DNA of 64,000 bases from the NCBI GenBank assembly GCA_021735655.1, contig JAIPGM010000009.1, positions 1 to 64,000 of the forward strand, in the 5' to 3' direction. Origin of the DNA: Candidatus Omnitrophota bacterium. GTDB taxonomy: Bacteria; Omnitrophota; Gorgyraeia; Duberdicusellales; 4484-171. Position numbers and translations under genes: made by a program. Below the pieces are notes generated by a model. That model was not told the origin of the DNA and made no database searches. It saw nothing but the letters and a program-made list of their open reading frames with translations. Below, one piece after another: positions 20,890-63,000 of this stretch; the stretch's first letter is position 1, and every line of letters begins with the position of its first letter.

Positions 20890-21972
20890 TTAAATCCACT
20901 TCTTGCGCCGAAAATAAATAAGCATAGTTAAGGCAATTAAAATCATAATTCCCCAAGCACCAAAATAGCCGAATTTCCAGCTAAGCTCAGGCATATTCCA
21001 AGGTGATATCTTAGGATCAAAATTCATGCCGTAAATACCAGCCACGAAAGTGATCGGGATAAAAATGGTAGCAATTATAGTCAAAACCTTCATAACCTCA
21101 TTCATCTTATTACTTACGCCAGACATATATATATCAAGCATCCCGGAAACCATATCCCGATAAGTCTCGACGGTATCGATAACTTGAATGGTATGATCAT
21201 AGAGATCACGCAAAAATATACGGGTCGGTTTTGCTATCAGCTTTGATTCGCTACGTTCCAAAGCATTAACTACCTCACGCAAAGGCCAGACTGATTTGCG
21301 CAAGAAAATAATGTCCTGTTTTGAGCGATGAATCATTTGCAAAGTCTTAGGTACAGGATTAGCGATAATTTTCTCTTCCATCTCCTCTATTTTTTCACCA
21401 ATCTTCTCCAATATCGAAAAATAATTATCTACCACTGAATCTAGAAGGCTATAGGCAAGGTAATCAGCGCCCATTTTTCTAATTCTACCCTTGGCCTTAC
21501 GAATCCGCTCGCGGATCGGGTTAAATACGTCACCTTCTTTTTCCTGCAGAGAAATAACAAAGTTATTCCCAAAAATTAAACTAACCTGTTCCGAAACAAC
21601 TTCTTTGCTCTTCTCCTTAAACATAAACATCTTTAAAACCACAAAAATATACTTATCAAAATCTTCATACTTAGGCCTCTGGCCAGTGTTAACAATATCC
21701 TCCATAGTCAAGGGGTGCATTTCAAACCGCTCCCCTAACTTAGTAATTATTTCTGTATCGTGCAAACCGTCGATATTCACCCAGGTAACCGTGGGGGTAT
21801 CTTTGAAAGGAAAAACTTCTTCAATGCTCTTAACTTCTTTTTCTTGAAAGTTCACCGAATCATAATCAATTACCGATATCTTCACTTTATCAATTTTTCT
21901 TTCCCCCACGTGAACTAAATCACCGGGAATATGTCCGGCAGTTTTAGATAATTTTTTTAGTAATTTAGCCAT
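20890..21972 (-). CDS. corA: Magnesium/cobalt transporter CorA
   Basis: It has the GMN motif (YGMNF) before the final TM helices. Confidence 0.9.
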   Translation of the reverse strand: MAKLLKKLSKTAGHIPGDLVHVGERKIDKVKISVIDYDSVNFQEKEVKSIEEVFPFKDTPTVTWVNIDGLHDTEIITKLGERFEMHPLTMEDIVNTGQRPKYEDFDKYIFVVLKMFMFKEKSKEVVSEQVSLIFGNNFVISLQEKEGDVFNPIRERIRKAKGRIRKMGADYLAYSLLDSVVDNYFSILEKIGEKIEEMEEKIIANPVPKTLQMIHRSKQDIIFLRKSVWPLREVVNALERSESKLIAKPTRIFLRDLYDHTIQVIDTVETYRDMVSGMLDIYMSGVSNKMNEVMKVLTIIATIFIPITFVAGIYGMNFDPKISPWNMPELSWKFGYFGAWGIMILIALTMLIYFRRKKWI

Positions 21973-22925: not shown

Positions 22926-24173
22926 TTATGTCTGTCTCAAAAATAGCTGAAATGACCTAGGTGGTAAATTAAATGAATAGTTATCAGTTACTATATTGAA
23001 CTTTTTCTTGTTATTGTCAATGTTTATGAATTTTCCCTGTATTGTCCTGGAATCAACCTCAACCTGGATTGATTCGGTACACTTATTAAATACCGCGATA
23101 CCGTCACCTTCCCGGCTAAATATAAGATGGCATTTTCCGGCTGAAACAATCTGCATAGTCTTCCCCGATAGAAGATTGTGAAATTTTATCATCTTTAGTA
23201 AATCCTTGCTCTTGTAAGCATCTTTCCACTGATCAGAATGCATTCCACCTTCTTTTCCTTTATCAGAATAAACTAACGGGACTCCGCCATCTCTGCCAAT
23301 AATATAAGCATAAGCAATCTTTTCATCTATTCTATTTGGATCGTTAGAATCAAAGATAAGTTGTCTCATCTCCTGATTATTAGGGATATCATGAGTTATG
23401 GCAAAAGTGAGACTTCGGAAACGGTCCAGCTGATCCGGTTCTTTTAAAGCTTCCAGACTACCCTCAATACTTAAGGCCTTACGCATTGAATAGAAAAGAT
23501 TAAAATCATAGACTGAAAAGTCAACTCTCTTTAAAAAATCTTTTAAGAAAATTCTATGTAACTCAGGAATTATCTCAGCAAAAATATATAAACCTCGGGT
23601 TATCTCCTCGGTAAAAACTTTTTTAATATGTTCTATCGACATATGCTTAGCCGCATCAATCCGAAACCCGTCAGCACCTATTTTTTTTAAAGCCCTAAGG
23701 TATTCTTTTTGGGCAGAAATCACCCTTTGACTGTCAGGATCTAAATCCGACAGGCCGGTATCAGTCTTGTGGCTAAAATCCTCAGCTGAAAAGATATCCT
23801 TTGATAAATCACCATATAGACGATTTCTAGCAAAAACTGGATCTTGCTGATACTGGTCTAGAATATCTTTACCAGGAAAATCCAAATTATCATCTCTACG
23901 ATGAGCCATGTGGTTAAAGACTACGTCGATATAGATTTTTAAATTATTTTTTTTTAAAGTTTGAATCAAAGAGGTTAATTCTTGCAGATTGCCCAAAGGC
24001 GAGAATATAACTCGGTAATCTAAAGGTTGATAGCGATAAAACCACTCTTTACCCTGACTAAAGGTAGGCGGCGAAATAAGTATGGCGGAATAACCAAAGC
24101 TGCTGATCTCTTTTGCTTGTTTCTCTATTTCCTTAAATTTCCAGTTAAAAGCATGTAAAATGACATTACCCAT
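22926..24173 (-). CDS. Alpha-amylase family (GH13) protein
   Basis: It has DVVFNHMA and GFRIDAAKHM catalytic-region motifs. Confidence 0.8.
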   Translation of the reverse strand: MGNVILHAFNWKFKEIEKQAKEISSFGYSAILISPPTFSQGKEWFYRYQPLDYRVIFSPLGNLQELTSLIQTLKKNNLKIYIDVVFNHMAHRRDDNLDFPGKDILDQYQQDPVFARNRLYGDLSKDIFSAEDFSHKTDTGLSDLDPDSQRVISAQKEYLRALKKIGADGFRIDAAKHMSIEHIKKVFTEEITRGLYIFAEIIPELHRIFLKDFLKRVDFSVYDFNLFYSMRKALSIEGSLEALKEPDQLDRFRSLTFAITHDIPNNQEMRQLIFDSNDPNRIDEKIAYAYIIGRDGGVPLVYSDKGKEGGMHSDQWKDAYKSKDLLKMIKFHNLLSGKTMQIVSAGKCHLIFSREGDGIAVFNKCTESIQVEVDSRTIQGKFINIDNNKKKFNIVTDNYSFNLPPRSFQLFLRQT

Positions 24174-24314
24174 TCAACCTCAATCAGAAATATAGCTAAC
24201 ATACCACTTATGATTCTTCTCTAATTTTCTTTTCTCAACCTCTCAATAAGCCTTTTAGTTGAAAAACGAACCTCTCTATTAGAGCATTATTTCCGTATTT
24301 ATCTATCGGTATTG

Positions 24315-24890
24315 CTATTTTCTTTTTAAAAACGAACTATTATGTTTTCGTAAAAATCTTCTATGCGGATTGCCTAGAGGGAACAGATTATTTTCAGTTA
24401 CAAACTGCATATCTTCTATGGTATAAAAAGCATTAGGATTGAATTTCTTTATTATTTGTATAACCCTTTTTAAATTCTTGCGTTTAACCACACTAAAAAT
24501 AACTTTAACCGGTCCATCTTTACCTTGAGCATTAATACTGGTGACGCCATAACCCTGCTTACTCATAAACTGCACTAAATCTACGGCATCTTTCTTAGTT
24601 ACTATTTGAATCATAAGATTACCCATTAGAATTCGTCTTTCTATAGAAATGCCCACAAAGTTTCCCATACCAAACCCAGCGGCATAAGCGATGTAATGGC
24701 TTACACTGCTTAGATTCTTCATTATCTGAGTAATAGCTATAAGCCAAATTAAAACTTCAAAAAAACCCAATACGGCTGACAAGAATCTTATCCCCCGGGA
24801 AACAAATATAATCCTGATAGTGCCGATAGTAACATCGATAATGCGGGCTAGAAAAATCAAAAACGGAATTAAGATATAATTTATTTCCAT
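24315..24890 (-). CDS. UPF0316/DUF2179-family membrane protein
   Basis: It has three N-terminal TM helices plus a C-terminal soluble domain. It is the last gene of the KamA-ATP-grasp operon. Confidence 0.5.
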   Translation of the reverse strand: MEINYILIPFLIFLARIIDVTIGTIRIIFVSRGIRFLSAVLGFFEVLIWLIAITQIMKNLSSVSHYIAYAAGFGMGNFVGISIERRILMGNLMIQIVTKKDAVDLVQFMSKQGYGVTSINAQGKDGPVKVIFSVVKRKNLKRVIQIIKKFNPNAFYTIEDMQFVTENNLFPLGNPHRRFLRKHNSSFLKRK

Positions 24891-24902
24891 AACTTTCTCG
24901 AT

Positions 24903-25979
24903 TTAGCGAAAAATCTTTAATATTTTATTACGCCAGTTATTATAAAAATAATGTGCTTTGGGCCCAGCCTGCTTTAGCAATTCCGGAGAACTACCTAGCC
25001 CCCTTATTTCAATCATTGCATCCTTAAGAAAAATTGAATATCTTTTGCTGATTTTTTTATTATTAATAAACCGCTGGGCAGCATCAACGATGTTATTAGC
25101 AGTAAACTGAGCGATCTGATCGGGTACACCACTAGGAGTTTCAGATTGAGAAGTCATATCGCATTGGTCGTTAACGTAATCTATGACTAAAAAACGCTTT
25201 TTTCCCTGTTTTTCATCAATAGCTATTTCACTTGAAAACCAAGCCATCCGGGTTATCGAAGCAATTTTAGAAACTATCTTGGCTAAGGGGAAAAGACTAT
25301 GCTTATTAAATTCTTCATAACCTATATGTTCATAACGATTAGCCTGATCATCCCACCAGCAAGGTATTATAGTATCAAATACATTAAACCCTCGAAACCA
25401 AGCACGTTTTCCTTCTATTTGGATAGGAACAATCTTCTCCTGTAGTAAAAAATTATCGCCTCGGTCAAACTTCCGAGCTTGAGCAATTTCTCGAATTGTG
25501 CCCCGAGCATCACGAATAACACCTAATTGACCATAGCCAAGCGCCGGCTTTATTACAAAAGGAACCCCTAGTTTCTTCTTCTCCTCATCGGGAAGCCTAA
25601 AAGTAGTCGGTTCCCAGTTACGAACAACAACTGTATAGGGAGCCATAATCCCGGCATTGATTAACTCATAGTGCATTGCTGATTTATCAATTGCACTCTG
25701 GGCCCGATCAGGATCATTAATAACCACCCCACCGCTATCTTTTACATCATAGCAAATACGAGTGTAGATATCGCCTTTTTTATTATAGGTAGCCTCGGTG
25801 TCCAGTAAAGCCTTGATTACAAGCTTTCTTTGATCAAGATCCCGAGCCACTTGCCTTACATTATCTTTAGATATCCAAAGGAAAGAAAGTTTTCTTTGCT
25901 TGCAAGCGGCCTGGAGTAAAACAACAAACCTCTCCTTGATATTACCACTCCAAGTCAAACCAAAATCGTATCTTTTCAT
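24903..25979 (-). CDS. ATP-grasp enzyme (RimK/LysX-like ligase?)
   Basis: It has VPFVIKPALGYGQLGV, matching the ATP-grasp KP..GS.G.GV pattern. There is a 9-nt gap to the LdcA-like gene. Confidence 0.5.
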   Translation of the reverse strand: MKRYDFGLTWSGNIKERFVVLLQAACKQRKLSFLWISKDNVRQVARDLDQRKLVIKALLDTEATYNKKGDIYTRICYDVKDSGGVVINDPDRAQSAIDKSAMHYELINAGIMAPYTVVVRNWEPTTFRLPDEEKKKLGVPFVIKPALGYGQLGVIRDARGTIREIAQARKFDRGDNFLLQEKIVPIQIEGKRAWFRGFNVFDTIIPCWWDDQANRYEHIGYEEFNKHSLFPLAKIVSKIASITRMAWFSSEIAIDEKQGKKRFLVIDYVNDQCDMTSQSETPSGVPDQIAQFTANNIVDAAQRFINNKKISKRYSIFLKDAMIEIRGLGSSPELLKQAGPKAHYFYNNWRNKILKIFR

Positions 25980-25988
25980 TATCTTATT

Positions 25989-26909
25989 TTAAACAACTGC
26001 ACTTTCGGCAACTGTTAATGACAGCCTATCAGCATCGATAGTTACCGGAAGTCCCAAAGGCAAGGTAACATGAAGCCCACCGCGCAAACGCAAATGCCCG
26101 GAAGGAAATCCATACAATACCGGGATATCCTGTCCTTTAAATAACTTTTCTATTAGTTTACGTAAATCATGGTCTTTACCTGAAGAGTCAAGCATTCTGC
26201 CTAAAAGTAACCCCTTGATATTTTTAAACTTCCCTGAACGCTTGAGACGAAAAAAATAATTTCTAATGGTATTAAAGTCTTCGTTGACGTCCTCTAAAAA
26301 CAAAATGCTGCCGGCAGTCCTTATTCGGTAAGACTTACCTATTGAATCAATGATTAAAGACATATTGCCGCCAACCAGCTTACCGGTAGCTACTCCCAGC
26401 TTAAAAGCAATCAGCTGGGGGAATTTCAATTCTCCCAAAGGCTTAGTTTCACTAAAAAGCCTTTGCAGATATTCAAGAGTCAGCTGATGCATTCCTTGAT
26501 AAATCTCCCCGGAAACTATCGGCCCGTGAAAAACAACCATCTTAGCCAATTTTTGCAAATAGAGTAAGATAATAGTTATATCACTGTACCCGAGAAAAAT
26601 TTTGGGATTTTTTCTAATAGTTTTCTCATCTAGGTAGGGTATAATTTCGGCTGAACCGTAACCGGCTTCAGCACAAAAAATAGCTCTCACTTCTTTGTCG
26701 GCAAACATCCGATTTATCTGCATGGCCCGCTGACGATCATGATCGGGCTTAGACCATTTCGGATCAAAAATTACTCGTTCATATTTAACTTTATAGCCTA
26801 GCTCTTTAAGCAGTTCAACGCCGCTTTTAAATTTATCCACATCAAAAGAACTTGCCGGAGCTACTATACCGATAGTATCACCAAGTTCTAATTTTTGAGG
26901 CTTACGCAT
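25989..26909 (-). CDS. LD-carboxypeptidase (peptidase S66; LdcA/MccF family)
   Basis: It has the GYSDIT nucleophile motif and a C-terminal GH...E triad region. There is a 2-nt gap to the upstream gene. Confidence 0.8.
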   Translation of the reverse strand: MRKPQKLELGDTIGIVAPASSFDVDKFKSGVELLKELGYKVKYERVIFDPKWSKPDHDRQRAMQINRMFADKEVRAIFCAEAGYGSAEIIPYLDEKTIRKNPKIFLGYSDITIILLYLQKLAKMVVFHGPIVSGEIYQGMHQLTLEYLQRLFSETKPLGELKFPQLIAFKLGVATGKLVGGNMSLIIDSIGKSYRIRTAGSILFLEDVNEDFNTIRNYFFRLKRSGKFKNIKGLLLGRMLDSSGKDHDLRKLIEKLFKGQDIPVLYGFPSGHLRLRGGLHVTLPLGLPVTIDADRLSLTVAESAVV

Positions 26910-26911
26910 TT

Positions 26912-29107
26912 TTACCTATCAAAGCTAAAACCATAACGATTAAATGAATCTTGCAAAATCAACCTTATTAAACTATTGTAACTGTTACCTTTCAATTTGT
27001 AAAGAATTGGTAAATCACCATACGAAGATGAGAGACCAGGCAAAGGGTTAATATCTATTATCTTAGGTTTGTTCTGAGTATCAAGGCGAAAATCTATACG
27101 CGCCATATCCTTTAATTCTAATTCTTTATATGCCTTTATAGCATAAAATTCAATTATTTTCTGAATATTTTTTAAAATACTCTCCTGTGGCTCATATTTA
27201 ACTTTATTTTGCCAATCCTGTTTGATCTCAAGAGAATAGAGAAAGTTCTTGCAAGCCTTATCCCTAGGCACTATTTTCATCATTCCTAGAATTTGTGGAA
27301 CTTCATTGCCGTAAACTCCTACGGTAATCTCATCTCTCTCCAAAAACTCTTCTATCAAGGCCGGCTGTTCATATTTCGAAATTATTTCCTCTACTCTCTT
27401 TTTTAAATCATCAAAGTTGCTGACTAAAGAATTAAGAAAAATTCCCTTTGAAGAACCTTCCCAACGCGGCTTTACAAGAAATGACCCGTTTCCTCCAAAA
27501 ATATTTCCTAAATTTTCTAAATCTTTGACATCCTTAATCATAGCCATCTCTGGAACCAGAATATTTGCTGATTTTAATAATCTATTGGTTAGGTATTTAT
27601 CTAGAGTGATTCCTAAGGCGACTGGATCTGATCCCGAATAGGGTATATCTAAGCTTTCAAGGATTGCCGGAACTTGCGATTCACGCCCCCTCTTATCCCC
27701 TCTGCCTTCGGCGATATTAAAAACGAAATCCGGCCTTTGACTCAACAATCGTTTTAGAAAATTATCATCCTGCTCAAAAATAACTACCTTGAAACCGTAT
27801 TTTTCTATTTCTTTCTTTATGCTTTCAATGGTCTCAATTTCGTCGTATTCCTCATGGTTCTCGCCAGCATCCTTATTTTTAAGATTAAATGTTATACCTA
27901 TTGTATTCACTGAGCGGACTTTTTTAGAATTAGTTATTGCTTCTGGCTGAACAGGAGTATCCTGATAAAAAAATATTTCATCTTTATAATTTTTTAATAT
28001 CATTCCTCGGTCAGAATCTGAAACCAAATAATCAGGACCAAAGGGGATTTTACCTTTCCCGCCTATAGCATCAATAACAAAAGTCGGTACACACATACCG
28101 CTAGTAAACCCCTGCATTTTTTTGATAATTTCTCTACCTTGCCAAGGTGATGTTCGAAAATGAGATGTCCCGCTAACCGGATCACACTGAAATAAATAAT
28201 ATGGCCTAACCCTTATCGCTTGTAGTCTCTGACATAAATCCCTCATCACTTGCAAGTTATCATTCACCCCCTTAAGCAATACTGACTGATTGCTTACAGG
28301 AATACCTATTTTTTGTAGTTTTCTGCAAGCTAAAGCTGCCTGAGGGGTAATTTCTCTAGGGTGGTTGAACTGGACATTAACCCAAACATTGTCATATTTT
28401 TTTAGCATCTCACAAAGCCGATCATCTATCCGCCGAGGGAAAACAACCGGAGTACGCGTACCGATACGGACAACCTCAATATTACTAAAAGAATGAATTT
28501 TTGAAAGTATAGCTTCTAGCCGTTCTGTAGGTAAAGTTAAAGGGTCTCCTCCGGAAACTATTATCTCCCTAATTTTCGGATTCCGGCCCACATAATTTAA
28601 GGCTCTATCTATATCTTCTAGGGTTGGTTCATTTATTTTTTTGCTCCATATTCTTTTTCTTGTGCAGTGGCGGCAATACATAAAGCAACGGTTAGTTACT
28701 AAAAGCAGTGCCCGATCAGGATAGCGGTGTACTAAGCAATCTAAGGGAGAACTCTTTTCCTCAGCTAAAGGATCCTTGCTTTCAAAGGAACCTTGGCTAA
28801 GCTCATCAAAATTAGGTATGCATTGTTTTCCAATCGGATCGCAGTTATCAGAGGTATTTTCAATTAAGGAAAAGTAGTAAAAAGGAATTTTCAAATGGTA
28901 AGCATCAGAAACTTTCTTTAATCGACAAATCTGTTCTTTATCTAAAGGTAGGTATCGAGAAAGGTCTTCAATGTTGTTAATAAACTCTTTAGGATCATAA
29001 TACTCTCTCCCAACATCAAGAGTTTTGTTGTGATAATTTACAGTTTCATAACTAGGTCCGCCAGGTTCCTCTTCAAGGAAAGTTTCAGCATCCAAGTTAT
29101 TGCTCAT
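26912..29107 (-). CDS. Fusion protein: KamA-family radical SAM aminomutase (lysine/glutamate 2,3-aminomutase-like) N-domain plus D-Ala-D-Ala-ligase-type ATP-grasp C-domain
   Basis: The N-domain has HRYPDRALLLVTNRCFMYCRHCTRKR (CX3CX2C) and SGGDPL. The C-terminal 330 aa have a Ddl-like pattern (DFVFNIAEGRGDKRGRESQVPAILESLDIPYSGS...ARIDFRLD...IDINPLPG). Upstream is RBS GAGGAGG. Confidence 0.8.
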   Translation of the reverse strand: MSNNLDAETFLEEEPGGPSYETVNYHNKTLDVGREYYDPKEFINNIEDLSRYLPLDKEQICRLKKVSDAYHLKIPFYYFSLIENTSDNCDPIGKQCIPNFDELSQGSFESKDPLAEEKSSPLDCLVHRYPDRALLLVTNRCFMYCRHCTRKRIWSKKINEPTLEDIDRALNYVGRNPKIREIIVSGGDPLTLPTERLEAILSKIHSFSNIEVVRIGTRTPVVFPRRIDDRLCEMLKKYDNVWVNVQFNHPREITPQAALACRKLQKIGIPVSNQSVLLKGVNDNLQVMRDLCQRLQAIRVRPYYLFQCDPVSGTSHFRTSPWQGREIIKKMQGFTSGMCVPTFVIDAIGGKGKIPFGPDYLVSDSDRGMILKNYKDEIFFYQDTPVQPEAITNSKKVRSVNTIGITFNLKNKDAGENHEEYDEIETIESIKKEIEKYGFKVVIFEQDDNFLKRLLSQRPDFVFNIAEGRGDKRGRESQVPAILESLDIPYSGSDPVALGITLDKYLTNRLLKSANILVPEMAMIKDVKDLENLGNIFGGNGSFLVKPRWEGSSKGIFLNSLVSNFDDLKKRVEEIISKYEQPALIEEFLERDEITVGVYGNEVPQILGMMKIVPRDKACKNFLYSLEIKQDWQNKVKYEPQESILKNIQKIIEFYAIKAYKELELKDMARIDFRLDTQNKPKIIDINPLPGLSSSYGDLPILYKLKGNSYNSLIRLILQDSFNRYGFSFDR

Positions 29108-29177
29108 TTTTCCTCCTCACTCAGGTAAAAGTCCACCCGGGAAAATTATAAATTACCCTATGATATCTCCATTCTCT

Positions 29178-29507
29178 CTAATAATCTTGGTCAGGATAAA
29201 CTTCTTCGCTGTCATCATCGTATCCTAACTCTTCATCATAAATATACTCATAGCTCAAAGCCCGCAAACCTTCCTGGCTATTTTCGGCTTTAATTTCCAC
29301 ATTATCTCCAAGCTCAAAATAAGCCTCTTCTACTAACTCTTTAGTAGTTAGCACTTTTTGACCACCAACAGTAATATAGCTACCGTCCTCGGAAATCTGC
29401 TCTATCTTACCCTTAAGCAACACTGAATCATCTTCCTGAGCAAAAGCAAAAGTTGTCCCAGCCAAAATCATAACCAACAACAATGTTAAATATTTTTTCA
29501 TGACCAT
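29178..29507 (-). CDS. Secreted small protein with an acidic C-terminal tail, hypothetical
   Basis: It has signal peptide ...TTFAFA|QE and an acidic tail DEELGYDDDSEEVYPDQDY. Confidence 0.5.
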   Translation of the reverse strand: MVMKKYLTLLLVMILAGTTFAFAQEDDSVLLKGKIEQISEDGSYITVGGQKVLTTKELVEEAYFELGDNVEIKAENSQEGLRALSYEYIYDEELGYDDDSEEVYPDQDY

Positions 29508-29725
29508 TCCTCCCTTTCTCCTTTTCCGTTAAAATCTTCTTCCTCCTCACTGTAATCCACGTAATCATCCCAGGTGCCGATTTCTTCCTCTAGCTCTACC
29601 GGATTAAGCTTGGTTAATTTAAGCTCTGCAAAACAACCCTGACAATTAAGGATATCGGCAATCCCCAAACCTTCTTCAATCTCAACATTTTCTTTACAAA
29701 CCGGACATTTGGTTTTTTTAACCAT
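29498..29725 (-). CDS. LysW-like zinc-ribbon small protein with an acidic C-terminal tail (candidate amino-group carrier protein)
   Basis: Two Cys pairs (CPVC...CQGC) are followed by AELKL..LNPVELEEE and an acidic tail ending EEWS. This parallels the Thermus LysW pattern CPECGAEL...CEDCGAELEV..LDPLRLE...EDWGE. Upstream is SD AAGGAGGT. Confidence 0.5.
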   Translation of the reverse strand: MVKKTKCPVCKENVEIEEGLGIADILNCQGCFAELKLTKLNPVELEEEIGTWDDYVDYSEEEEDFNGKGEREEWS

Positions 29726-29839
29726 TTATACCTCCTTTTAACCAAATACTCCTATATTCTTAATGGACCGCTCCACCGACATTAAGTTTATAGTTTCCAT
29801 ACTTTTTATTGAAGAGTGTAAACTGTTAGGTAAGACATT

Positions 29840-30178
29840 TTATCTTTTAGTTCGACGAGTTGCTTTTTTATCACTGGCGAAAGTTTTAGTAGCTCTAAAC
29901 TGAGAAACAATAAAATCGGTAATTCGACATTGAGGAGAATTAAGATCCTTATTGCGCCGGTAAAAAACCGAGTTGCCCTTTCTCCGGTCAAAAACTAGCT
30001 TAAGCAGGCGCAACCTCATTAGATGCTTGGAAATCGTAGGCTGGCTTACTTTTAAAACAACACATATATCTTTAACGGTAAGTTCTTTCTCATCCAGCAC
30101 ATTTATTATCCTTAGACGCGTATCATCGGAGCAGGCTTTAAATATCTGGCGTAATGATTTTAGATTTACTTTTCGCAT
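29840..30178 (-). CDS. ArsR/SmtB-family transcriptional regulator
   Basis: It has an HTH_20 pattern: SDDTRLRIINVL...LTVKDICVVLKVSQPTISKHL. I moved the start to the internal ATG (MRKVNLK) because the promoter lies inside the longer track ORF. Confidence 0.8.
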   Translation of the reverse strand: MRKVNLKSLRQIFKACSDDTRLRIINVLDEKELTVKDICVVLKVSQPTISKHLMRLRLLKLVFDRRKGNSVFYRRNKDLNSPQCRITDFIVSQFRATKTFASDKKATRRTKR

Positions 30179-30196
30179 ATAACATTCCTTTATTGG

Positions 30197-30235
30197 TATA
30201 TACGTATATATATCATCGGTTAAAAAGGTTGTCAA
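30197..30235 (-). promoter_or_regulatory. Sigma-70 promoter TTGACA-17-TATATA for arsR-family gene, with a 14-bp perfect palindrome TATATACGTATATA across the -10/+1 (probable auto-operator)
   Basis: The -35 is at 30230-30235. The palindrome is at 30197-30210. The spacer is 17 nt. Confidence 0.55.
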
Positions 30236-30378
30236 TATTTATTTTTTCTTTTTAAGAAAATAGGCCCTGGGCTTAGTTAATAAAGGGCACCGAAGGCGAC
30301 AAAATACAGGCAAGTGGAAAATTATATTTAGAATTGTTTAAAAGTATTCTAGCAGGAATAGTAAGGTTTACTTTTTTC

Positions 30379-31047
30379 TTAAACAACAAGTAAGTGTCCA
30401 TTTTCCTTAAGCCATCTTTGATATTTCTTATAATCAGGAATTATCGTTTTAACCTTGCTCCAAAATCTTCGGGAGTGATTTCTTACCTCAAGATGCGCCA
30501 ATTCATGCACTATAACATAATCGATAACTTGCAGTGGCGCAATTATTAAACGCCAAGCGAAGTTTAACCTCCCACTTGCACTGCAAGATCCGAATCTTTT
30601 ATAAGCATTTGATATTCTTAATGACTTGTATCTTAAACCCGTCACTTCTACAAAAAAATCTAAACGTTCTGATATTTTATTTAGCGCTTTGGCTCGATAC
30701 CACTCAATTAAACAGCTCCGAGCCTGAGGTAATAAACTTTTTGGAAACTCTAAATACTCAGTTAAGACTATATCCCTTCGATCCAAAGCTCTGAACCTGT
30801 AAGGACTGCCTAAATAAAAAAACTCTTCTCCATTAATAAATTGTTTAGTTTTAGTTTGAGCCTTACGCTTTTTTGCAATTTCCTGCTTCTTTTCAATCCA
30901 CTCCTTTTTCTGCGAAACGAAATCTTTAATTAACTTATCTGAAATACCAAAAGGAGCTCTCACGATCAATTGAGCATCTTGGGTTATGGCAAGAGACAAA
31001 GTCCGACGCCTTGACCTTATTATTTTATCCACCTTAACTTTTTCCAT
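30379..31047 (-). CDS. YgjP-like (DUF45) / M48-family zinc metallopeptidase
   Basis: It has the HELAHL...NHS...FW motif. Confidence 0.75.
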   Translation of the reverse strand: MEKVKVDKIIRSRRRTLSLAITQDAQLIVRAPFGISDKLIKDFVSQKKEWIEKKQEIAKKRKAQTKTKQFINGEEFFYLGSPYRFRALDRRDIVLTEYLEFPKSLLPQARSCLIEWYRAKALNKISERLDFFVEVTGLRYKSLRISNAYKRFGSCSASGRLNFAWRLIIAPLQVIDYVIVHELAHLEVRNHSRRFWSKVKTIIPDYKKYQRWLKENGHLLVV

Positions 31048-54018: not shown

Positions 54019-57000
54019 TTACAAATCAGTTGCTTTTTTCTTCTTTTTCTCATCATCGTCTTTGCCGCCAAAATAAGGAGCTAGAGTCCCTTTGAGGTTA
54101 ATATTCTGCTCAATGAACTCATAAGCACCACTATCTAGGCTAATACCATCAAAGCCTGACTCATCGGTTACAGTTAACGGATGATAAGCATAAAAATCGG
54201 TGCTTCTAACTGGGGTAACTGTACTAAATCTATAGTTAGCCATCAATTCATAGTAAGTCCTAGAATCACGCAAGATACTTGCTAAAAATTGAGCACCGTC
54301 AAATTCTGGTAAGAAATCTGGCCAAATCTGCTGAGGTCCTAAGTTAGCTGCCGCAGGGCCAAACAAAGGTGAAGCACCTCTGGTGTCGGTATCATCATAA
54401 AAGATGTATCCCGGAGGTGTAACATTGGTTAAGTCAATATCTGGCGATGGAAAAACCCCGGTAACTGCTGTAACCCCAGGTCTAACTATACCTTCAATGG
54501 CTCCGCTTACCCCTAAGGTACCACTAGGACCAGCTAAGGTAAAACCAGGAGCAGCGCCACCTATCTCTAGGGTAAGCCCAGCAACTGGCGTAAAACCAGC
54601 AGGAACTGCCCATTTTGAAGGATCTAAATCCACTGCCTGAATATTTACATTTAAAGGATTATAAAAATTATCTGCATCTACTGGAACTCCTGCGTTACCA
54701 ATTCCAATTGTGCCTTCTGGTGTTGAGAAATAAGAATAACTTCCAGCAATTACGTTTGGCCCAGAAACCGGGTCAACTACGTAATGTGAAAATACATCTA
54801 TTCCACCATCGGTCGACCAAGGAGTACCAGTTAAGTCCATCGGAAGCGCTCTTGCGAAATCATTTACCGTGTCAGGACCAGTTGTTACGTCTGGTTGTAC
54901 TCCGCTAGGATCCCAGCCGGTTCCGGCATAAATCGAGCCAGTGCGGCTTTCTAAATAAACTCCACCGCGCGGTGCGATAACTGAGTTAACTGTCATGTCC
55001 CCACCACTACTAACATTAATTATCCCATTATTAGCAGCAACTGAAAGACCATAAAGAGTGCCTGCGTCCTCAGTCAAGGTACCTAGGGTAATGCTGTCTA
55101 ATTCATTAACGTAGATGTTTCCTACATCCCAAGAGTAAGCACTTAAATAATCAACTGCTGTCATAAATGGCGAAGCACTGGTACCGATATTGTGACGGGC
55201 CAATAACCCGGCAAAATCAGCGCTAACCAGCGAAGTAGCATCACCATAGATATTACCTTCCCAAGCATAGATATCTACTTCTGAGCTGCCTGTACCGCCA
55301 ACTGAAGCTGAAATAGAGCTATTAGCAAGGGTTACATCGCCGTTACCAGAGATTAAAGTTGCTCTGGCATCGCCGTCACCTATCATCTCAGCTGAAACAG
55401 TACTATCAGTAATATTTACACCCAAATTAGCAAATAATTCAACTAAAGCTGTATCACTACCACTTAAAGCTTGAGCTAAAATAGTGCTGCCATTAGTTAC
55501 GTTAATTTCACCATCTTGGGCGGTTACGCCTATTTCGGCATGACCTTCTCCATCTACGTCAGCAGTAATATCACTATTGCTAATATTAACATCGTTAAGG
55601 GTATTAATATCAACAAGGGCTATTCCTTCATTGCCTACTAAAGCTTCCAAGGTTGAATCGGTAATTGTTGTACTATTCCCAGCAACGCTAAGAATAGTTG
55701 CATCACCATCATTGCCAACTGAAGCTATTACTGTACTTTCTATTACCTCTATGTTGCCTTTGTCGGCAGCCAAGTTAACCGTAGCATCGCCATCATTTAC
55801 TACTGATGCAGCAAGTGTACTCGGATCAATGGTTATATCATTTGCGGCAAGAACGTTAATCGTAGCATCGCCATCATTACCAACCAAAGCTTCCAAGGTT
55901 GAATCAGTAATTGTAGTATTGTCGCCAGCTTCTAAGTTAACTGTTGCGTCACCGTCATTACCAACCAAAGCATATCCATAATCAGTGTAGGCTTCAACAT
56001 GACCAGTATCGACCTCGATATCATCTTCAGCTTCGATATTGACAGTGGCTTTGATGTCGCTGTCTTGGATTTCGACTCTTTCATCAGCTTCTAGATTGAT
56101 CTCAGATTTAACCGTACTAGAAGAGATCTTGACATCATCAGCTGATACTATATCGACCTGAGCTTCAATTGTCTCATCAGTTACTTCGATGTTTTCTCCA
56201 GCTTCAATGTCAATTGTTGATTTTACAGTGCTGTCTTGAATTATTAGGTCATTCCACCAGTTGCCTTCTTCAGGATCCCAACCACCGACTACTAGGTCGA
56301 TCTCGGATTTAACGGTGTCAACGTCATCGCCGTTGGTGATCTCAACGTCATCTTCAGCATCGATGTCAACTGTGGCTAATACATTACTGTTAACAATCTC
56401 CATCCTCTCATCAGCCTTAAGCTCGACTTCAGACTCGATATGGCTGTCGATTGACTTTACGTCATCTGAGGACTTAAGAGTTACTTCAGATTCGATGGTC
56501 TCACCAGTTACCTCTATAGTATCCTCAGCAGTTACATCGACTAAGGCCTTAACGGTTGATTCTTCAATTACCAGGTCGCTCCAGTTGCTGTCATTGTCAC
56601 CACTCCAGCCGCCGGCTACCAGATCTATTTCAGCTTTGATAGTTTCACCTTCAGCGTTAGTGATTTCAACGTCATCTTGAGCCTCAATCTCAATAGTAGC
56701 TAAGATATCGCTGCTTTCAATTTGCAGACGGTCTTGAGCTACTAGTTCAAGTTCGGCTTCTATAGTGCTATCAGTTATCTTTACATCGTCTGAAGACTTA
56801 AGAGTTACTTCAGATTCGATGGTCTCATCAGTTACTTCAATCTTGTCATCGGCAGTTACATCTACCAATGATTTAACTGTTGAATCTTCAATTACCAGGT
56901 CGCTCCAGTTGCTGTCATTATCACCACTCCAGCCGCCGGCTACCAGGTCTATTTCAGCTTTAACAGTAGTCTCACCTTCAGTGATCTCAACGTCATCTTC

Positions 57001-60000
57001 GGCGTCAATAGCTACAGTTGCTAGAATATCACTGTCAGTTATTTCTAAACGATCATCAGCTACTAGCTCGGTTTCAGCTTCGATAGTGCTTTCAGAGATC
57101 TTCACATCGTCGCCGGAAGCTATATTAACTGTTGATTCAACAGTCTCACCGGTTACTTCGATCTTGTCATCGGCAGTGATATCGACCAGTGATTTAACCA
57201 AACTGCTGTTGATTATTACATCATTCCACCAGTTACTTGCATTGTTTACCACGATATCAATCAATGAGCCGATAGTTTTACCGCCGTCATTGGTGATCTC
57301 AACGTCATCTTCAGCTTCGATATTGACAGTGGCTTTGATGTCGCTGTCTTGGATTTCGACTCTTTCATCAGCGCTAATCCTAACTTCGGCCTTAACATCA
57401 CTAGAAGCAATCTTTACGTCCTCATCGGCACTCAAGTTTACTTCTGCAGTTAAGTCTTCACCGTCTAAGTCGATATTAGAATCTTCCAATTCGACTTTAG
57501 CCAATACTGTACTGCGTGTTACCTCTATATTGTTGTCAGCTTGGGCATTAACCGTTGCTTGGCCTTTTCCTTCTAAAATCGCCTCGACTGTACTGTCCTC
57601 TATTTTAATGTCATGATCAGCTTGTAAGTTAACTCTTGATTCACCATCAAGATAGTTAATCGCTCTAACCAAACTGTCATTCTTTACTATTAAATCATTA
57701 CCAGCAGTAATATTTACACTGGCTACGCCGGTGTCAGAAGGTGGATCGATTGCTCTAACAGTGCTGTTATCCACAGTCACATTGCCTAAATCGGAATGGA
57801 TACCAATATAGGCGCCACCATCAGATGAAGGGGCAAGTTTAGAAAAAGCGCTTACTAAGCTATCCTTGATCACTATATCATTATCGGCAAGTAAGTTAAT
57901 CCAGGCTGATGCACCAAGGGCCCTGGCGATAACATCACTTCTTAATAAACCGATTCTATTAGCATCGAATCTAATTCTTGATAGTCCACCAAGATTTAAC
58001 TCATTAGTAACTACCCTTGAGTCAATCACCCTAATATCATCATTAGCATCGAAGAAAATCCTGGCTAAGTAATTACCGAACGAATTAGCTCTAACTACGC
58101 TACCGTCTCTTAGACCGATGTTTTTACCAGCATGAAACTCAACATTTGCCGGACCATTATTAATTGAGGTAGCTGCAACTCGTGAGTTTGTTAAACCGAT
58201 ATTATCCCCAGCATCTATTGTAATAATTGCTGAGGCTACTCCATCAAGCACCTGGCTCAACAAATCGCTGTTGTTCAGAAATACATCACTAGCAGCATCA
58301 ATATCTATCTCAGCATGGCCGGTGTTTGACACTATTGCTTTCACTTCACTGTCATCGATTGTAATATCGCCATTCTCGGTCGAAATATCTACATAAGCAT
58401 TACCGTTCAAAACTGATGCTGTAATGTAGCTTGTGTCTATGGCAATGTTATCACCGGCAGATAGATCAACTGAAGCATCGCCGTCACCCTCAACGGTTGC
58501 ACTTACAGTGCTGTCAGTGATGGTTAAATCTCCATTCTCAAGTGTACCCGATGTAGGAGGAACAGGTTCGTAAGGAGTGGTCCAATCACCAGCTACCATT
58601 TTAACCGTAGCATTACCGTTTCCGGTTACATTAGAAGAAACTGTACTATTAGCAACACTAATGTTCTCACCTTCAGCAAAAACCTCTGCATTACCAGTAC
58701 CGGTTTGAGCTGAAACTGTACTTGAATCGTTTATATTAAGATCAGCGCCATGGAAAGTGCTGTTATACAAATCTGGATCAGGAAAATTTATCATAATCCC
58801 ATCTGCATGCAATCCGGCGCTAAGTTCAACATTGGCATCGCCGGTTCCTTGAGTGATTGCGCTAACTGTGCTGTCAACAACATCGATCCCCTGCCAAGCA
58901 CGGACAGTTGTTGTAGTATCACCATTGCCAGCTGTGAAAGCTCTGACTATGCTGTTGTTTTGTATTGCGGTATTGCCAGAAGTTCCAAAAAAGACTGTTG
59001 AATCTCCGTCATTACCAACAGTGGCTTCGATTGTACTGTTATCAACTGTTTGAGAGGCAATCGGCCCATGAGTAAGCAGTGAAACTTCAGCATCACCGTC
59101 ATTGCCAATAGCCGCTGAAACAGTACTATCTAAAACTTGTAACGGCCCAGCCGATCTTAAAACAACACTAGCGGTGCCATTTAAAGCTGAGGCCGAAATC
59201 AAACTCGGGTCTATAGTCAGAGTTCCGTCGGCAATCATATTTCCAGCAGTTAAATCAACTGAAGCATTGCCAGTGCCTACGACAGTAGAAGTAATATCAC
59301 TATCGGTTACAGTAACATTTGTACCAGCATCTACATCAATCGAAGCATCGCCATCAAGGCCAATTCTAGCTAAGATATCGCTATCGACTATCGAAACTAG
59401 ACCATTAGTTGCATTTGCAATAACTGTTGCATCTCCACCGCCGCGGACTCTTGAACGAATTAGGCTATTGTCCCTAATGGAGATTCCTCTTCCCGGTGTT
59501 GTTAAGCTAACTGAAGCATTTCCATTGCCATTAACCCAAGCATCAATGACGCTTGAGTCGTACACACTGATTCCATTGTCAGCATCAGCAGTAATCAAAG
59601 CATTTCCATCGCCCGCACGAAAAGCCTCAATAGTTCCATCTACAAAAAGAGTTCCACTGTTAACGTCTAAATTAATAACTGCATCATCAGCTGGACCAGA
59701 TCCAGTTGCCAAAACTGAATAAGCATAAGTATCTCCACCGGTAATAATATCGACTACACTCCCTAGAGCCTGGATATCCCAAAGATTTACACCGTCTAAC
59801 TCGTTAATCCATACATCGCCACCTAAAGCAATCGCTTGCCAGATATCATCTACGTTAGTGTCAATATGATCACCTGGGACACCAATAGTACCAGCTGCAT
59901 TCATGTAAAGATTTGGAGCTGTTAAATTAATGCGATTACCATTAGTATCGAGAATATCGCCTGCAGAACTAGTTAAACGAATATTATCGCCAGCATTAAT

Positions 60001-63000
60001 AACACCTAAAGAAATATTACCAACTGCATTAATATTAGCATCATGACCAGCCGTAACAGTGCTATTCGATACCACAACCTGACCATCAGCGTCAATATTT
60101 ACATCATAACCTGCGGTCATATCACTTGAACCATTCATGATAGTATCTCGACCGGTGACAACGTTAATACTTCCGTCAGAAAGTAACGCCGAGCTTTGGC
60201 TCATGATTAAATCCTGAGCTGCATAGATATCAACCAATCTGCCTGAGCGGATAGTTGAATTATTGTTCATAAGAACATCTCTCTGGGCATCTACGTCAAC
60301 CCAAGCTGTACCTAAAATATCTGCATTGTTAAACATCCTTAAGTCTGCATCAAGGTTTACATCAACAATTCTGGCTTCAATTGATGAGTTGTTATGCATA
60401 CCTAAACCAAAAGCGTCAATGCGTGCATTAGTGGCATTAATTGCTGAAGTATTATACATTCTCATAAGATTAGCCACATCAATCGTTACATTTGTACCTG
60501 AGATAGATGATCTATTATTCATTGTAAAATTATCTGGCCCTGCTCCATCACCTACGTTTACAAATATATCAGTTCCGGTAATCGAAGATGTGTTATTCAT
60601 CTCCATATAATCATCGGCTGAAACATTCACCGTAGCACCATGGATAAGAGCATCGCCGTTCATAGTTAAAGTATCATTGCCAGATCCATTGCCAGCTGAA
60701 ACATTAACTATACCGCGTGTGCCAATAGTGCCTGTATTGTGGACTAGATCGTTATCGGCATGTACATTAACTGTACCTGAGCCAAGGCTGATAACATCAG
60801 CGTTAACTGTCATATCAGCTCCGGGGCCAGAACCATTAGCTGCTAAACTAACATCACTATTTCCAACAACATCAGCATTAACTGTCATTGGCGAACCAGT
60901 AGTAATATCAATATTTCCACTACCAAAGTTCTTTACGGCATATCCCCATCCTGGCAAATCATTGAGGGCTATAGCACCCTTATTGCGAATAGTGATATCA
61001 CCGCTTGAATCAGGATCGCGTACCTGTGCGCTTAAACTGCCAATTCGAGTTTTCAAATCAATTGAAGTCTTTGCATCAAGTATCGCTGTATCAGAAATGA
61101 TGTTTGGCCCAAACCCACTATTACCTATAATAGAGCCGGTAAAGTTAAATGGATAAACATCGTAGCCCATTGTCAAAAGAATAACATCAGTTGCAATTAA
61201 TTGGTTAATCGCTAAGTCAGTTAGCTCATTTAAATTAATAAGCCCGCCAACGCGACCCTCTAAAGTTTCTATCTCGGTCTCGATTCCATTACCTAAACCA
61301 GCGAGACCAACATTACCGTCAACATCAAAGGCAAGTGTGTCAGCTACAATATCAGTGCCGATGTCGCCTGAGCCCTGCTCCTGCACATCACCTGAACTGA
61401 TTAGCTTAAATTTCAGCCCCGGCTGATCTAAATTATTAATTGTGATAGTTCCGGCGCTACTTGAACCGATATTGATAAAACCAGAAGTAATCAAATTGTA
61501 GATTTCATCATTAGAAAGCCTAAACTGACCATAAGCTAAATGTGCGGCTAGAGCAATTGTCTGAGCAGCGCTTGGGGCAATAGTAATATCTGCCGTGCCG
61601 GCATCTACGATACCGTCAACATTAATGTCATCAGCGCTTATGTAGACTTCTCCGTCAGTTGCTCCAGTTGTATCTATAACCGAACCATTTTGCAAATCAT
61701 AGAAACCAGTAGTATCACCATCGCTATCAGCTGAACCGGTAAAGCTTCCACCACCGGTGTAAACATCTCCACCAGAACTATGGATAATATCACCTACGGC
61801 AGCCAAAATTACATCTCCGCCGCCACTATTGATCAAAGCATTAACATAAAGGTTAGGATCATCAACTACGGCTATATCAATAAGTCCGTTGTTAGTAGTA
61901 ATCGCACCATCAAGCCATAAATCACCAGAGTTAATCAAACTGAAGCTATCTCCGTCAAATCCACCAAAATGCATTGCACCAGCATGATACATGGCGGCTC
62001 TTTGAGCAGTAATAGACATATTGTTTGATCTTAATTCAAGAGCACCATTTGTACCAAAACCGATATCACCACCGGCATTAAAATCTATGGTATTGGCTGA
62101 TATATCAAAGTTAGTAATACCACCTGCAACCTTATCAATTCCATCAACAGCATTGCCACTATCATAAGCATCATTGATATTTCCACCGGCCGTAACTGTT
62201 ACTGTTCCTAATGCAGGAATAGCTGAACCAGTAAAAGTACCATCAGTTGAAACCCTAGTAACATAAGCATCTTGGGCAGCAGTTAAGTCAATATCTCCGC
62301 CGTCAGTAACTACGCTGCCTGTTTGACTAATAGCCAAATCTCTTCCAGCATCAAGACCAACATTGCCAGCGCTTGAATCAACAGCAGCATTTACTGACAA
62401 ATCTCCATCAGCACCAGCTGCAGCTAAACTAATATCGCCCAAGGCTAAAACATCAGAATTTACTGTTAAAGGAGAAGCTGTAGAAATATCAACTGCTCCA
62501 CCGATATTATTAACACCACTACCGGCGATAGTTAGATCTCCAGTATTATCAATTTCTATATTTCCTGAAATCGTATTAAGAGCTTCTAAATTACTTACCT
62601 GTGTTTCTAAAGCATCGCCGGAACCGATTCCTTGAGCTGCAGAAATGCTTAAAGAATCAGCGGTGATATCAGGAGTAGTGGCACTATTAGCATCTACTAC
62701 TGCCCCATCACTTGAATTTATATTAACATTTACACCACTCAATCCAGTTGTAACTGTTGTTGAAGTGGCGCCTAAAGGATCGCTTCCTACCTCATAAGAT
62801 GCTTTTAACCACGCATCACTTCTGGCAACATTTGAAACCCTGACTTCATCAATCTGGCCTTCAGTTAAATAATTTGTATCACCCCAACCGCCAATCATAA
62901 AGTCGGTAGCAGTATCGACATCGCCTGATGAAGTTGCAAAACCAATATTGTCACCTGCGCCATCTACATACAAACTTCCTGAACCACCGCTACGAGCAAG

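Follow-up and report, generated by a model that had tools for sequence, protein, structure and literature searches.

A KamA-ATP-grasp gene cluster of Candidatus Omnitrophota and its possible role in the synthesis of a beta-lysine-containing peptide or amide

In this study we analyzed a gene cluster in a stretch of 64,000 nucleotides (nt) from Candidatus Omnitrophota bacterium (contig JAIPGM010000009.1, positions 1 to 64,000), which is referred to as the window. The cluster encodes, in transcription order, an ArsR-type regulator, a LysW-fold zinc ribbon of 75 amino acids (aa), an exported 109-aa protein, a fusion of a KamA-family aminomutase with a Ddl-like ATP-grasp ligase domain (AG1), an S66 peptidase, a second ATP-grasp ligase (p358) and a UPF0316 membrane protein. 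This operon is a local variant of a widespread cassette that is built from known kinds of enzymes. It may well encode a carrier-free, ATP-dependent pathway to a small beta-lysine-containing peptide or amide, a proposal that we judge to be evenly balanced between right and wrong. Loci and proteins from other genomes are given by our L and P identifiers.

The aminomutase-ligase fusion

The fusion protein, which is 100% identical to the NCBI entry 'KamA family radical SAM protein [Candidatus Omnitrophica bacterium]', combines two enzymes, as the preliminary description of this DNA had proposed. Residues ~40-405 form a KamA radical S-adenosylmethionine (SAM)/pyridoxal phosphate (PLP) domain (TIGR00238, 294.7 bits against a cut-off of 199.2), and residues ~420-731 form AG1 (Dala_Dala_lig_C, 98.5 bits, cut-off 24). 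Residues 40-405 align with the lysine 2,3-aminomutase of Clostridium subterminale (2A5H, 358 bits) and residues 424-725 with D-Ala-D-Ala ligases. Among the KamA sub-families AblA ranked first (425.6 bits), followed by glutamate (379.8 bits) and arginine 2,3-aminomutase (343.9 bits), and EpmB was the weakest match (236.3 bits, cut-off 369). The cut-off of the AblA equivalog TIGR03820 (525.4 bits) was not reached; the match covered profile positions 15-377 of 417.

In the comparison with 2A5H the CxxxCxxC motif (C125, C129, C132) as well as R134, D293, D330 and K337 were all identical in the fusion. When 82 cassette KamA homologues were aligned, the three cysteines and R134 were found in every sequence and D293, D330 and K337 in 80, the other two homologues being gapped at these three positions. 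In 2A5H K337 holds PLP, which forms an aldimine with the alpha-amine of lysine, while R134 binds the lysine carboxylate and D293 together with D330 the epsilon-ammonium group. Glutamate 2,3-aminomutase has Lys and Asn in place of the lysine-binding Asp pair. Because all residues that bind free L-lysine are kept, we strongly infer from the sequence that the KamA domain would convert free L-lysine to beta-lysine (3,6-diaminohexanoate) as the first step of the pathway.

A product of the beta-lysine/beta-glutamate type had been suggested before. The beta-lysine part of this suggestion stands, whereas beta-glutamate, and likewise beta-arginine, was rejected since the lysine-specific Asp pair is conserved and AblA is the top-scoring sub-family. 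We also rejected a modification of EF-P by an EpmB-type enzyme on account of the lowest sub-family score and the absence of EpmA. The EpmB/EpmA system is similar in that a KamA-family mutase feeds beta-lysine to a ligase, but the ligase found here is an ATP-grasp enzyme and not a LysRS paralogue. The domain retains the PLP lysine and stands apart from EpmB, which agrees with its earlier classification as an aminomutase. A carrier-linked synthesis, which had been suggested as well, was not borne out for the mutase step, as R134, D293, D330 and K337 grip free lysine and leave no handle for a carrier. An N-alpha linkage of the LysW type would block the mutase, and therefore a carrier could act only after the mutase step.

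AG1 keeps the invariant ATP-grasp residues. Dala_Dala_lig_C was the sole Ddl-type model that it passed; in this it resembles Ddl, but it differs from it by scores far under the cut-offs of NF002378 (137.4 against 243 bits) and TIGR01205 (125.8 against 245.65 bits). Because KamA and AG1 are fused here and are near-universally adjacent elsewhere, we propose that in the second step AG1 would join beta-lysine to a second amino acid or amine, forming the amide bond via an acyl-phosphate.

Ligase p358, the S66 peptidase and the wider cassette

The second ligase, p358, had no Pfam match, and its NCBIfam matches to LysX, MptN and RimK were weak only and stayed under the cut-offs (TIGR00768, rimK_fam, 19.6 against 143.4 bits; TIGR02144, 22.3 against 275.6 bits). 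A confident model predicted from an alignment of 36 sequences (predicted local distance difference test score, pLDDT, 85.9; predicted template modelling score, pTM, 0.84) adopts an ATP-grasp fold, in which the VIKPALG segment carries the invariant Lys. In a Foldseek search with this model the ArgX-LysW complex ranked first (4e-11) and RimK was within the top three. Its predicted fold places p358 among the ATP-grasp ligases close to RimK and LysX, in line with its earlier designation as a second ATP-grasp enzyme. More than 1000 proteins belong to the p358 family, most of them from Omnitrophota, and one genome (CP070807.1) carries two paralogues. In complete Omnitrophota genomes one p358 homologue adjoins a LysM-Amidase_2 gene (L089:6136-8086), and one pair of p358 and S66 lies far from any KamA (L091:6033-8026).

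The assignment of the gene upstream of p358 to the S66 LD-carboxypeptidase family was upheld. Like LdcA and MccF the protein has both domains (Peptidase_S66, 113 bits; S66C, 88 bits), and its catalytic Ser (GYSD), Glu (LEDV) and His (PSGH) motifs align with those of MccF 3SR3. The best relatives in the PDB were MccF (104 bits) and then LdcA (68 bits). It differs from LdcA in that the equivalog NF008424 was not reached, with 98.1 bits being far under the cut-off of 378.

All p358 counts out of 80 refer to the 80 loci that a scan of metagenomes with p358 yielded. S66 adjoins p358, in either order, in 31 of them, and KamA and/or AG1 lies directly upstream of p358 in 21, the gene orders being KamA-AG1-p358, KamA-AG1-p358-S66 and KamA-AG1-S66-p358. 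A scan with the AG1 domain, restricted to one genome per GTDB species, revealed at least 594 relatives, and 80 loci were returned. Among these AG1 loci we found KamA in 67, a second Ddl-like ATP-grasp ligase (AG2) in 73, a small GNAT N-acetyltransferase in 54 and p358 in two. The commonest order was KamA-AG1-AG2-GNAT, hereafter the sister cassette, and the hosts include Dehalococcoidia, Synergistaceae, Gemmatales and other Planctomycetota, Acidobacteriota, Syntrophales and Omnitrophota. Fusions of KamA and AG1 occur in Omnitrophota, Nitrospirota and several archaea, and in Eubacteriales with the domain order reversed. Reversed ATP-grasp-KamA fusions (L006:1024-5196, Eubacteriales, and P0068) have an AMP-binding-like protein and an S51 peptidase as neighbours, and one 944-aa protein comprises Peptidase_S51 (PF03575), KamA and ATP-grasp domains together.

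A merged table comprised 69 non-redundant KamA-AG1 loci with upstream sequence. AG2 alone was present in 55 and p358 alone in ten, with or without S66 and without GNAT in any of the ten; a single locus (L001) had both ligases. The position of p358 is held in most other phyla by the second Ddl-like ligase and the GNAT. Because p358, with or without S66, replaces AG2 and GNAT in one Omnitrophota lineage, it may perform the second ligation of the same pathway. In this third step, which the gene replacement suggests, p358 would add a further residue to a terminal carboxylate. The S66 peptidase, being tightly paired with p358, would take off a terminal residue in a fourth step and thereby recycle or mature the product.

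The GNAT of the sister cassette has ~155 aa and is RimI-like. A small winged-helix regulator is encoded upstream in 12 loci, and MarC recurs in 5. In 14 loci the GNAT gene is followed by a gene for a 579-aa protein of the histone deacetylase (HDAC) family (L077:12422-14161; further examples in L012, L028, L034 and L047), of which the N-terminal ~260 aa have no Pfam match and the C-terminal part matches PF00850 with 244 bits. Its position suggests a cycle of acetylation and deacetylation on the product. The tight pairing and the recurrent partners, i.e. S66, S51 in Eubacteriales and the HDAC-type protein in the GNAT variant, suggest that the product would be both built and taken apart by dedicated enzymes. 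This would be expected of a compound kept as a regulated pool, for example a compatible solute. By analogy, our guess is that the most likely physiological role is that of a nitrogen-rich compatible solute whose synthesis and breakdown would be regulated. As context for this role only trehalose synthase (TreT), amylase and channel genes were found nearby. TreT and DUF5752 are located just downstream in three Omnitrophota loci (L001, 13028-14883; L014; L058), an alpha-amylase-family gene and a gene for a TrkA-C domain protein are near the window operon, and L008 has an MscS-type channel.

Several observations weigh against the proposed pathway. The sequence predicts no product or substrate for AG1, p358 and S66, and the role as a compatible solute is suggested by analogy and loose gene context only. 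ArgX, LysX and RimK, the nearest structural kin of p358, have protein C-termini as their substrates, as would be expected of a carrier pathway or a protein modification. Moreover, 43 p358 loci are flanked on either side by 1.1 kb or more of sequence, and in 23 of these p358 has no S66 or KamA/AG1 neighbour. Pairs of S66 and p358 without KamA were found in L091-L093, L097, L146, L149 and others. Because of these stand-alone pairs and the single p358 genes, the p358/S66 module appears to be used elsewhere as well, and it could serve another process such as the recycling of cell-wall peptides.

Comparable systems have been described for beta-lysine derivatives and for peptide osmolytes. In methanogens AblA and AblB reportedly make N-epsilon-acetyl-beta-lysine. 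The cassette resembles this system in that a KamA-family mutase would provide free beta-lysine, a GNAT is part of the same operon in the sister cassette and AblA is the best equivalog. In contrast to AblA/AblB, one or two ATP-grasp ligases lie between mutase and GNAT, AG1 is fused to KamA in the window, the window operon has no GNAT and its AblA match stays under the equivalog cut-off. Besides, AblB is longer than the GNAT of the sister cassette. Ngg and AsnO are said to synthesize N-acetylglutaminylglutamine amide (NAGGN), a dipeptide osmolyte. There, too, a GNAT and an ATP-grasp enzyme yield a small N-acetylated peptide osmolyte, so the logic of the sister cassette has a precedent; however, the ATP-grasp enzyme belongs to another clade, an aminomutase is missing and the window variant does not contain a GNAT.

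A full-text literature search yielded no paper on a KamA/ATP-grasp cassette, although an earlier mention is possible in work outside the search, e.g. the 2009 Iyer/Aravind amidoligase survey. The cassette is apparently undescribed so far, and the earlier remark of knowing no description of such a combination of genes met with no counterexample in this search.

The LysW-like protein and alternative explanations

The zinc ribbon had been described as LysW-like, and our results support this classification. It passed PF21344 marginally (28.6 bits, cut-off 27) and remained under the LysW equivalog cut-offs (TIGR01206, 20.6 against 53.2 bits; NF041070, 19.5 against 75 bits). In the AlphaFold2 (AF2) model a beta-rich globular core (pLDDT ~87) is followed by a disordered tail (~51), and the top six PDB matches in Foldseek were all LysW chains (template modelling score 0.62-0.90, E 1.6e-3 to 4.6e-2). 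LysW has a conserved C-terminal EDWGE, of which the terminal Glu is the attachment site. The tail of the window protein is rich in Asp, Glu and Tyr and ends with EREEWS, so that EDWGE with a terminal Glu is not present. Among the LysW-like proteins the last residues were S, N, D, E, W, F, F, F, E, W and E. A word-indexed homologue search with the zinc-ribbon alignment gave only seven proteins, and an exhaustive profile search gave 792 representative clusters. The 97 representatives of at most 100 aa most often ended with E (17) or Y (16), followed by N (8), F (8) and W (7). A W-[G/A/D]-E terminus was seen in one of the 97 (P0321, ...EDWGE), and P0393 ends with EDYGE. Long tails in which Asp, Glu and Tyr abound characterize the family (P0248-P0396), and many of its members are tandem duplications of 130-140 aa. 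The 75-aa protein is therefore placed within a large non-canonical branch of the LysW fold.

The gene for the LysW-like protein was found in ten of the 69 KamA-AG1 loci, all from Omnitrophota, and in two of the 80 p358 loci. AG2 accompanies it in six of the ten, in four together with GNAT, and all six lack p358 and S66. A homologue of the 109-aa protein is encoded beside the LysW-like gene in eight of the ten loci and in nine of twelve overall, L002 and L014 being without it. This partner was correctly called a small secreted acidic protein: it has a Sec-type signal peptide (MVMKK, a hydrophobic stretch and AFA/QE) and an acidic tail, its homologues could be aligned from eight loci, each adjoining a LysW-like gene, and its matches to DUF5666 (22.8 bits) and ExtJ (28.9 bits) were under the cut-offs. 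In L014 (17711-19060) the LysW-like gene is directly upstream of a gene for the Mg/Co transporter CorA and has no ligase beside it; the window also contains a CorA gene (20890-21972). In 19 loci that had no match to the LysW-like hidden Markov model (HMM), we also looked for divergent small CxxC...CxxC ORFs and recovered nothing new, only the known L115 protein. In the proposed pathway the LysW-fold and 109-aa proteins would be accessories, present only in a subset of Omnitrophota and dispensable for the core chemistry.

These data bear on the explanation that the preliminary description favoured, in which the operon works like an amino-group-carrier pathway. Lysine biosynthesis through LysW, LysX, LysZ, LysY, LysJ and LysK reportedly proceeds on such a carrier. 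Here p358, acting as LysX, would load the acidic tail of the LysW-fold protein, beta-lysine chemistry or peptide assembly would take place on the carrier and S66 would release the product. In favour of this explanation, one operon combines an acidic, disordered-tailed LysW-fold zinc ribbon, an ATP-grasp ligase of the RimK/LysX clade and a carboxypeptidase, and in L115, the only such locus, a LysW-like gene (...DMDWDE) without KamA lies 25 nt upstream of p358. Nevertheless, PLP chemistry needs a free alpha-amine, which a LysW-type linkage would block, and the residues binding the carboxylate and the epsilon-amine are all conserved. The terminal Glu, on which loading takes place in known carrier pathways, is not conserved here. 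The LysW-like gene accompanies KamA-AG1 only in the minority of loci counted above, six of them without p358 and S66, and most related loci do not have the zinc ribbon at all. Kinase, reductase and aminotransferase are missing: no LysZ-, LysY-, LysJ- or LysK-type protein was found among the seven operon proteins, their three downstream neighbours and YgjP upstream, whereas other ORFs of the window were not profile-searched. The peptidase is of the S66 and not of the M20 type of LysK. The canonical amino-group-carrier mechanism is poorly supported because of the variable C-terminus, the presence in ten of 69 loci and the pairing mainly with the 109-aa protein, and we regard the carrier explanation as unlikely. 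We also consider it improbable, to a like degree, that the zinc ribbon is a true scaffold to whose tail p358 and/or AG1 attach beta-lysine or a beta-lysine peptide, which S66 then frees. If this were true, carrier- or scaffold-peptide biosynthesis of the LysW or pearlin kind would be extended to beta-amino-acid chemistry, and a function would be found for ~800 clusters of non-canonical LysW-like proteins. Decidedly unlikely is a reversible modification of protein tails similar to RimK and S6 or tubulin and TTL, with p358 and/or AG1 adding residues, possibly beta-lysine, to an acidic C-terminus such as that of the 75-aa protein and S66 removing them. In its favour, RimK ranks within the first three structural hits for p358, ligase and carboxypeptidase are tightly paired and the long tails of the LysW-like family often end with an aromatic residue. 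However, this explanation meets the same problem of distribution as the carrier model, the candidate acceptor has no conserved acceptor residue, most phyla have no candidate acceptor gene near the cassette and, in contrast to RimK/S6 or tubulin TTL with its carboxypeptidases, an acceptor protein was not identified here and p358 reached only 19.6 bits for rimK_fam.

Rather unlikely, in our view, is that S66 and p358 form a separate module for the recycling or remodelling of peptidoglycan peptides, which trims stem peptides and re-ligates or adds a residue and is merely a neighbour of KamA-AG1 or is fed with beta-lysine by it. The membership of S66 in the LdcA/MccF family, the S66-p358 pairs without KamA, the p358 gene beside LysM-Amidase_2 in L089 and the Ddl-like AG1 are in favour of this explanation. 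Yet 21 of the 80 p358 loci have KamA/AG1 directly upstream; two gene orders occur, AG2 and GNAT are absent, and this argues for p358 as a functional substitute and not for chance. Besides, MccF and not LdcA is the closer relative of the window S66, and the sister cassette is abundant in Dehalococcoidia, which to our knowledge do not have peptidoglycan. That the genes are unrelated neighbours without a common pathway is scarcely credible. UPF0316 and the flanking genes are indeed not conserved between the window and L008, and the whole 64-kb window is one-stranded: all ORFs of at least 100 aa in the non-overlapping set are on the minus strand, an unusually long run, and the GC skew is negative throughout. 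For this reason co-direction is by itself weak evidence. As stated in the preliminary description, the ORF listing of the window contains seven co-directional, tightly spaced genes (24315-30235, minus strand), with distances of 114, -10 (overlap), 70, 2, 9 and 12 nt in transcription order; the gap of 114 nt separates ArsR from the zinc ribbon, and the 10-nt overlap is shared by the zinc-ribbon and 109-aa genes. Conservation of the cluster in related loci was confirmed. L008, whose fusion protein is 84% identical, shares the gene order all the way from ArsR to p358, and L095, in which KamA and the ATP-grasp ligase are separate genes, shares it from the LysW-like gene onward to p358. Since these orders recur and the KamA-AG1 and S66-p358 sub-modules are adjacent in dozens of loci across phyla, the arrangement goes beyond chance, and for the core genes an unrelated neighbourhood is contradicted.

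Control region, genomic setting and implications

The features of the operon are listed in Table 1. The description of the first gene as an ArsR regulator with a palindromic operator was correct with regard to the family (NF033788, 73.6 bits, cut-off 55) and acceptable with regard to the palindrome as a candidate, but not with regard to the start codon. The homologues are 107-124 aa long and an AAAGGAA resembling a ribosome-binding site (RBS) precedes the ATG at 30178; therefore the translation start is most likely this ATG and not the listed TTG at 30235. Upstream of ArsR a promoter-like site was read by eye, with TTGACA (30235-30230), a spacer of 17 nt and TATATA. The palindrome TATATACGTATATA overlaps its -10 element, and similar ATATA-N2-4-TATAT palindromes occur upstream of the ArsR homologues in L001, L011 and L110. 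In a scan for consensus promoters and terminators no excess over shuffled sequence was found. ArsR probably regulates its own expression via the promoter-overlapping palindrome, and TATATACGTATATA is a plausible candidate for the autoregulatory operator. Inspection of the ArsR protein by eye revealed neither a CVC motif nor an alpha-5 His/Asp metal site. The inverted repeat between ArsR and the zinc-ribbon gene has 14-nt arms that are 86% complementary and a 14-nt spacer, did not match Rfam and may serve as a further operator or form an RNA hairpin. An Rfam scan of positions 24000-30600 matched no riboswitch and no other RNA family.

Table 1. Position and basis of identification of the operon genes and control-region elements in the window
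Feature	Position	Strand	Basis
ArsR/SmtB winged-helix regulator, 112 aa	29840..30178	-	HTH_5 45.5 bits; NF033788
LysW-fold zinc ribbon, 75 aa, acidic tail	29498..29725	-	PF21344, Foldseek
Exported 109-aa protein	29178..29507	-	Signal peptide, conserved DUF5666-like beta-rich domain, acidic tail
KamA-AG1 fusion, 731 aa	26912..29107	-	TIGR00238, AblA, Dala_Dala_lig_C
S66 serine peptidase (LD-carboxypeptidase/MccF family), 306 aa	25989..26909	-	Peptidase_S66 + S66C
p358 ATP-grasp ligase, uncurated family, 358 aa	24903..25979	-	Predicted fold nearest ArgX/LysX/RimK
UPF0316 membrane protein (DUF5698 + DUF2179), 191 aa	24315..24890	-	NF003191
Perfect 14-nt palindrome TATATACGTATATA, candidate ArsR operator	30197..30210	n/a	Sequence reading
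Imperfect inverted repeat, ArsR/zinc-ribbon intergenic	29752..29793	n/a	Repeat search

The identity of the last gene as UPF0316 was verified (NF003191, 234.5 bits, cut-off 179), and it is tied to the cluster only loosely. L008 has DUF2391 at the corresponding position and UPF0316 follows S66 only in L136; as its position is not conserved, UPF0316 was rejected as a member of the pathway. The genes flanking the operon on both sides differ from those at L008. Elsewhere in the window an ORF of 3236 aa (54019-63729, minus strand) has N-terminal DUF2341 and Laminin_G_3 domains, with the remaining ~2900 residues having no Pfam match, and probably encodes a giant surface protein.

The LysW-like family with acidic tails is a separate question, which the window operon makes testable. 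If the proposed beta-lysine pathway holds, many uncultured anaerobes including Omnitrophota, Dehalococcoidia, Synergistaceae, Planctomycetota and several archaea would make an undescribed small molecule that contains beta-lysine. This would be a new class of metabolite, possibly an osmolyte, in organisms for whose physiology genomes are almost the only source. Moreover, functions would be assigned to the KamA-linked Ddl-like ligases, to the p358 family and to their S66 partners. Pairs of KamA and GNAT in metagenome bins could then no longer simply be annotated as synthesis of N-epsilon-acetyl-beta-lysine. The radical SAM aminomutase and the ATP-grasp ligases can be expressed and assayed, which makes the pathway accessible to experiment.

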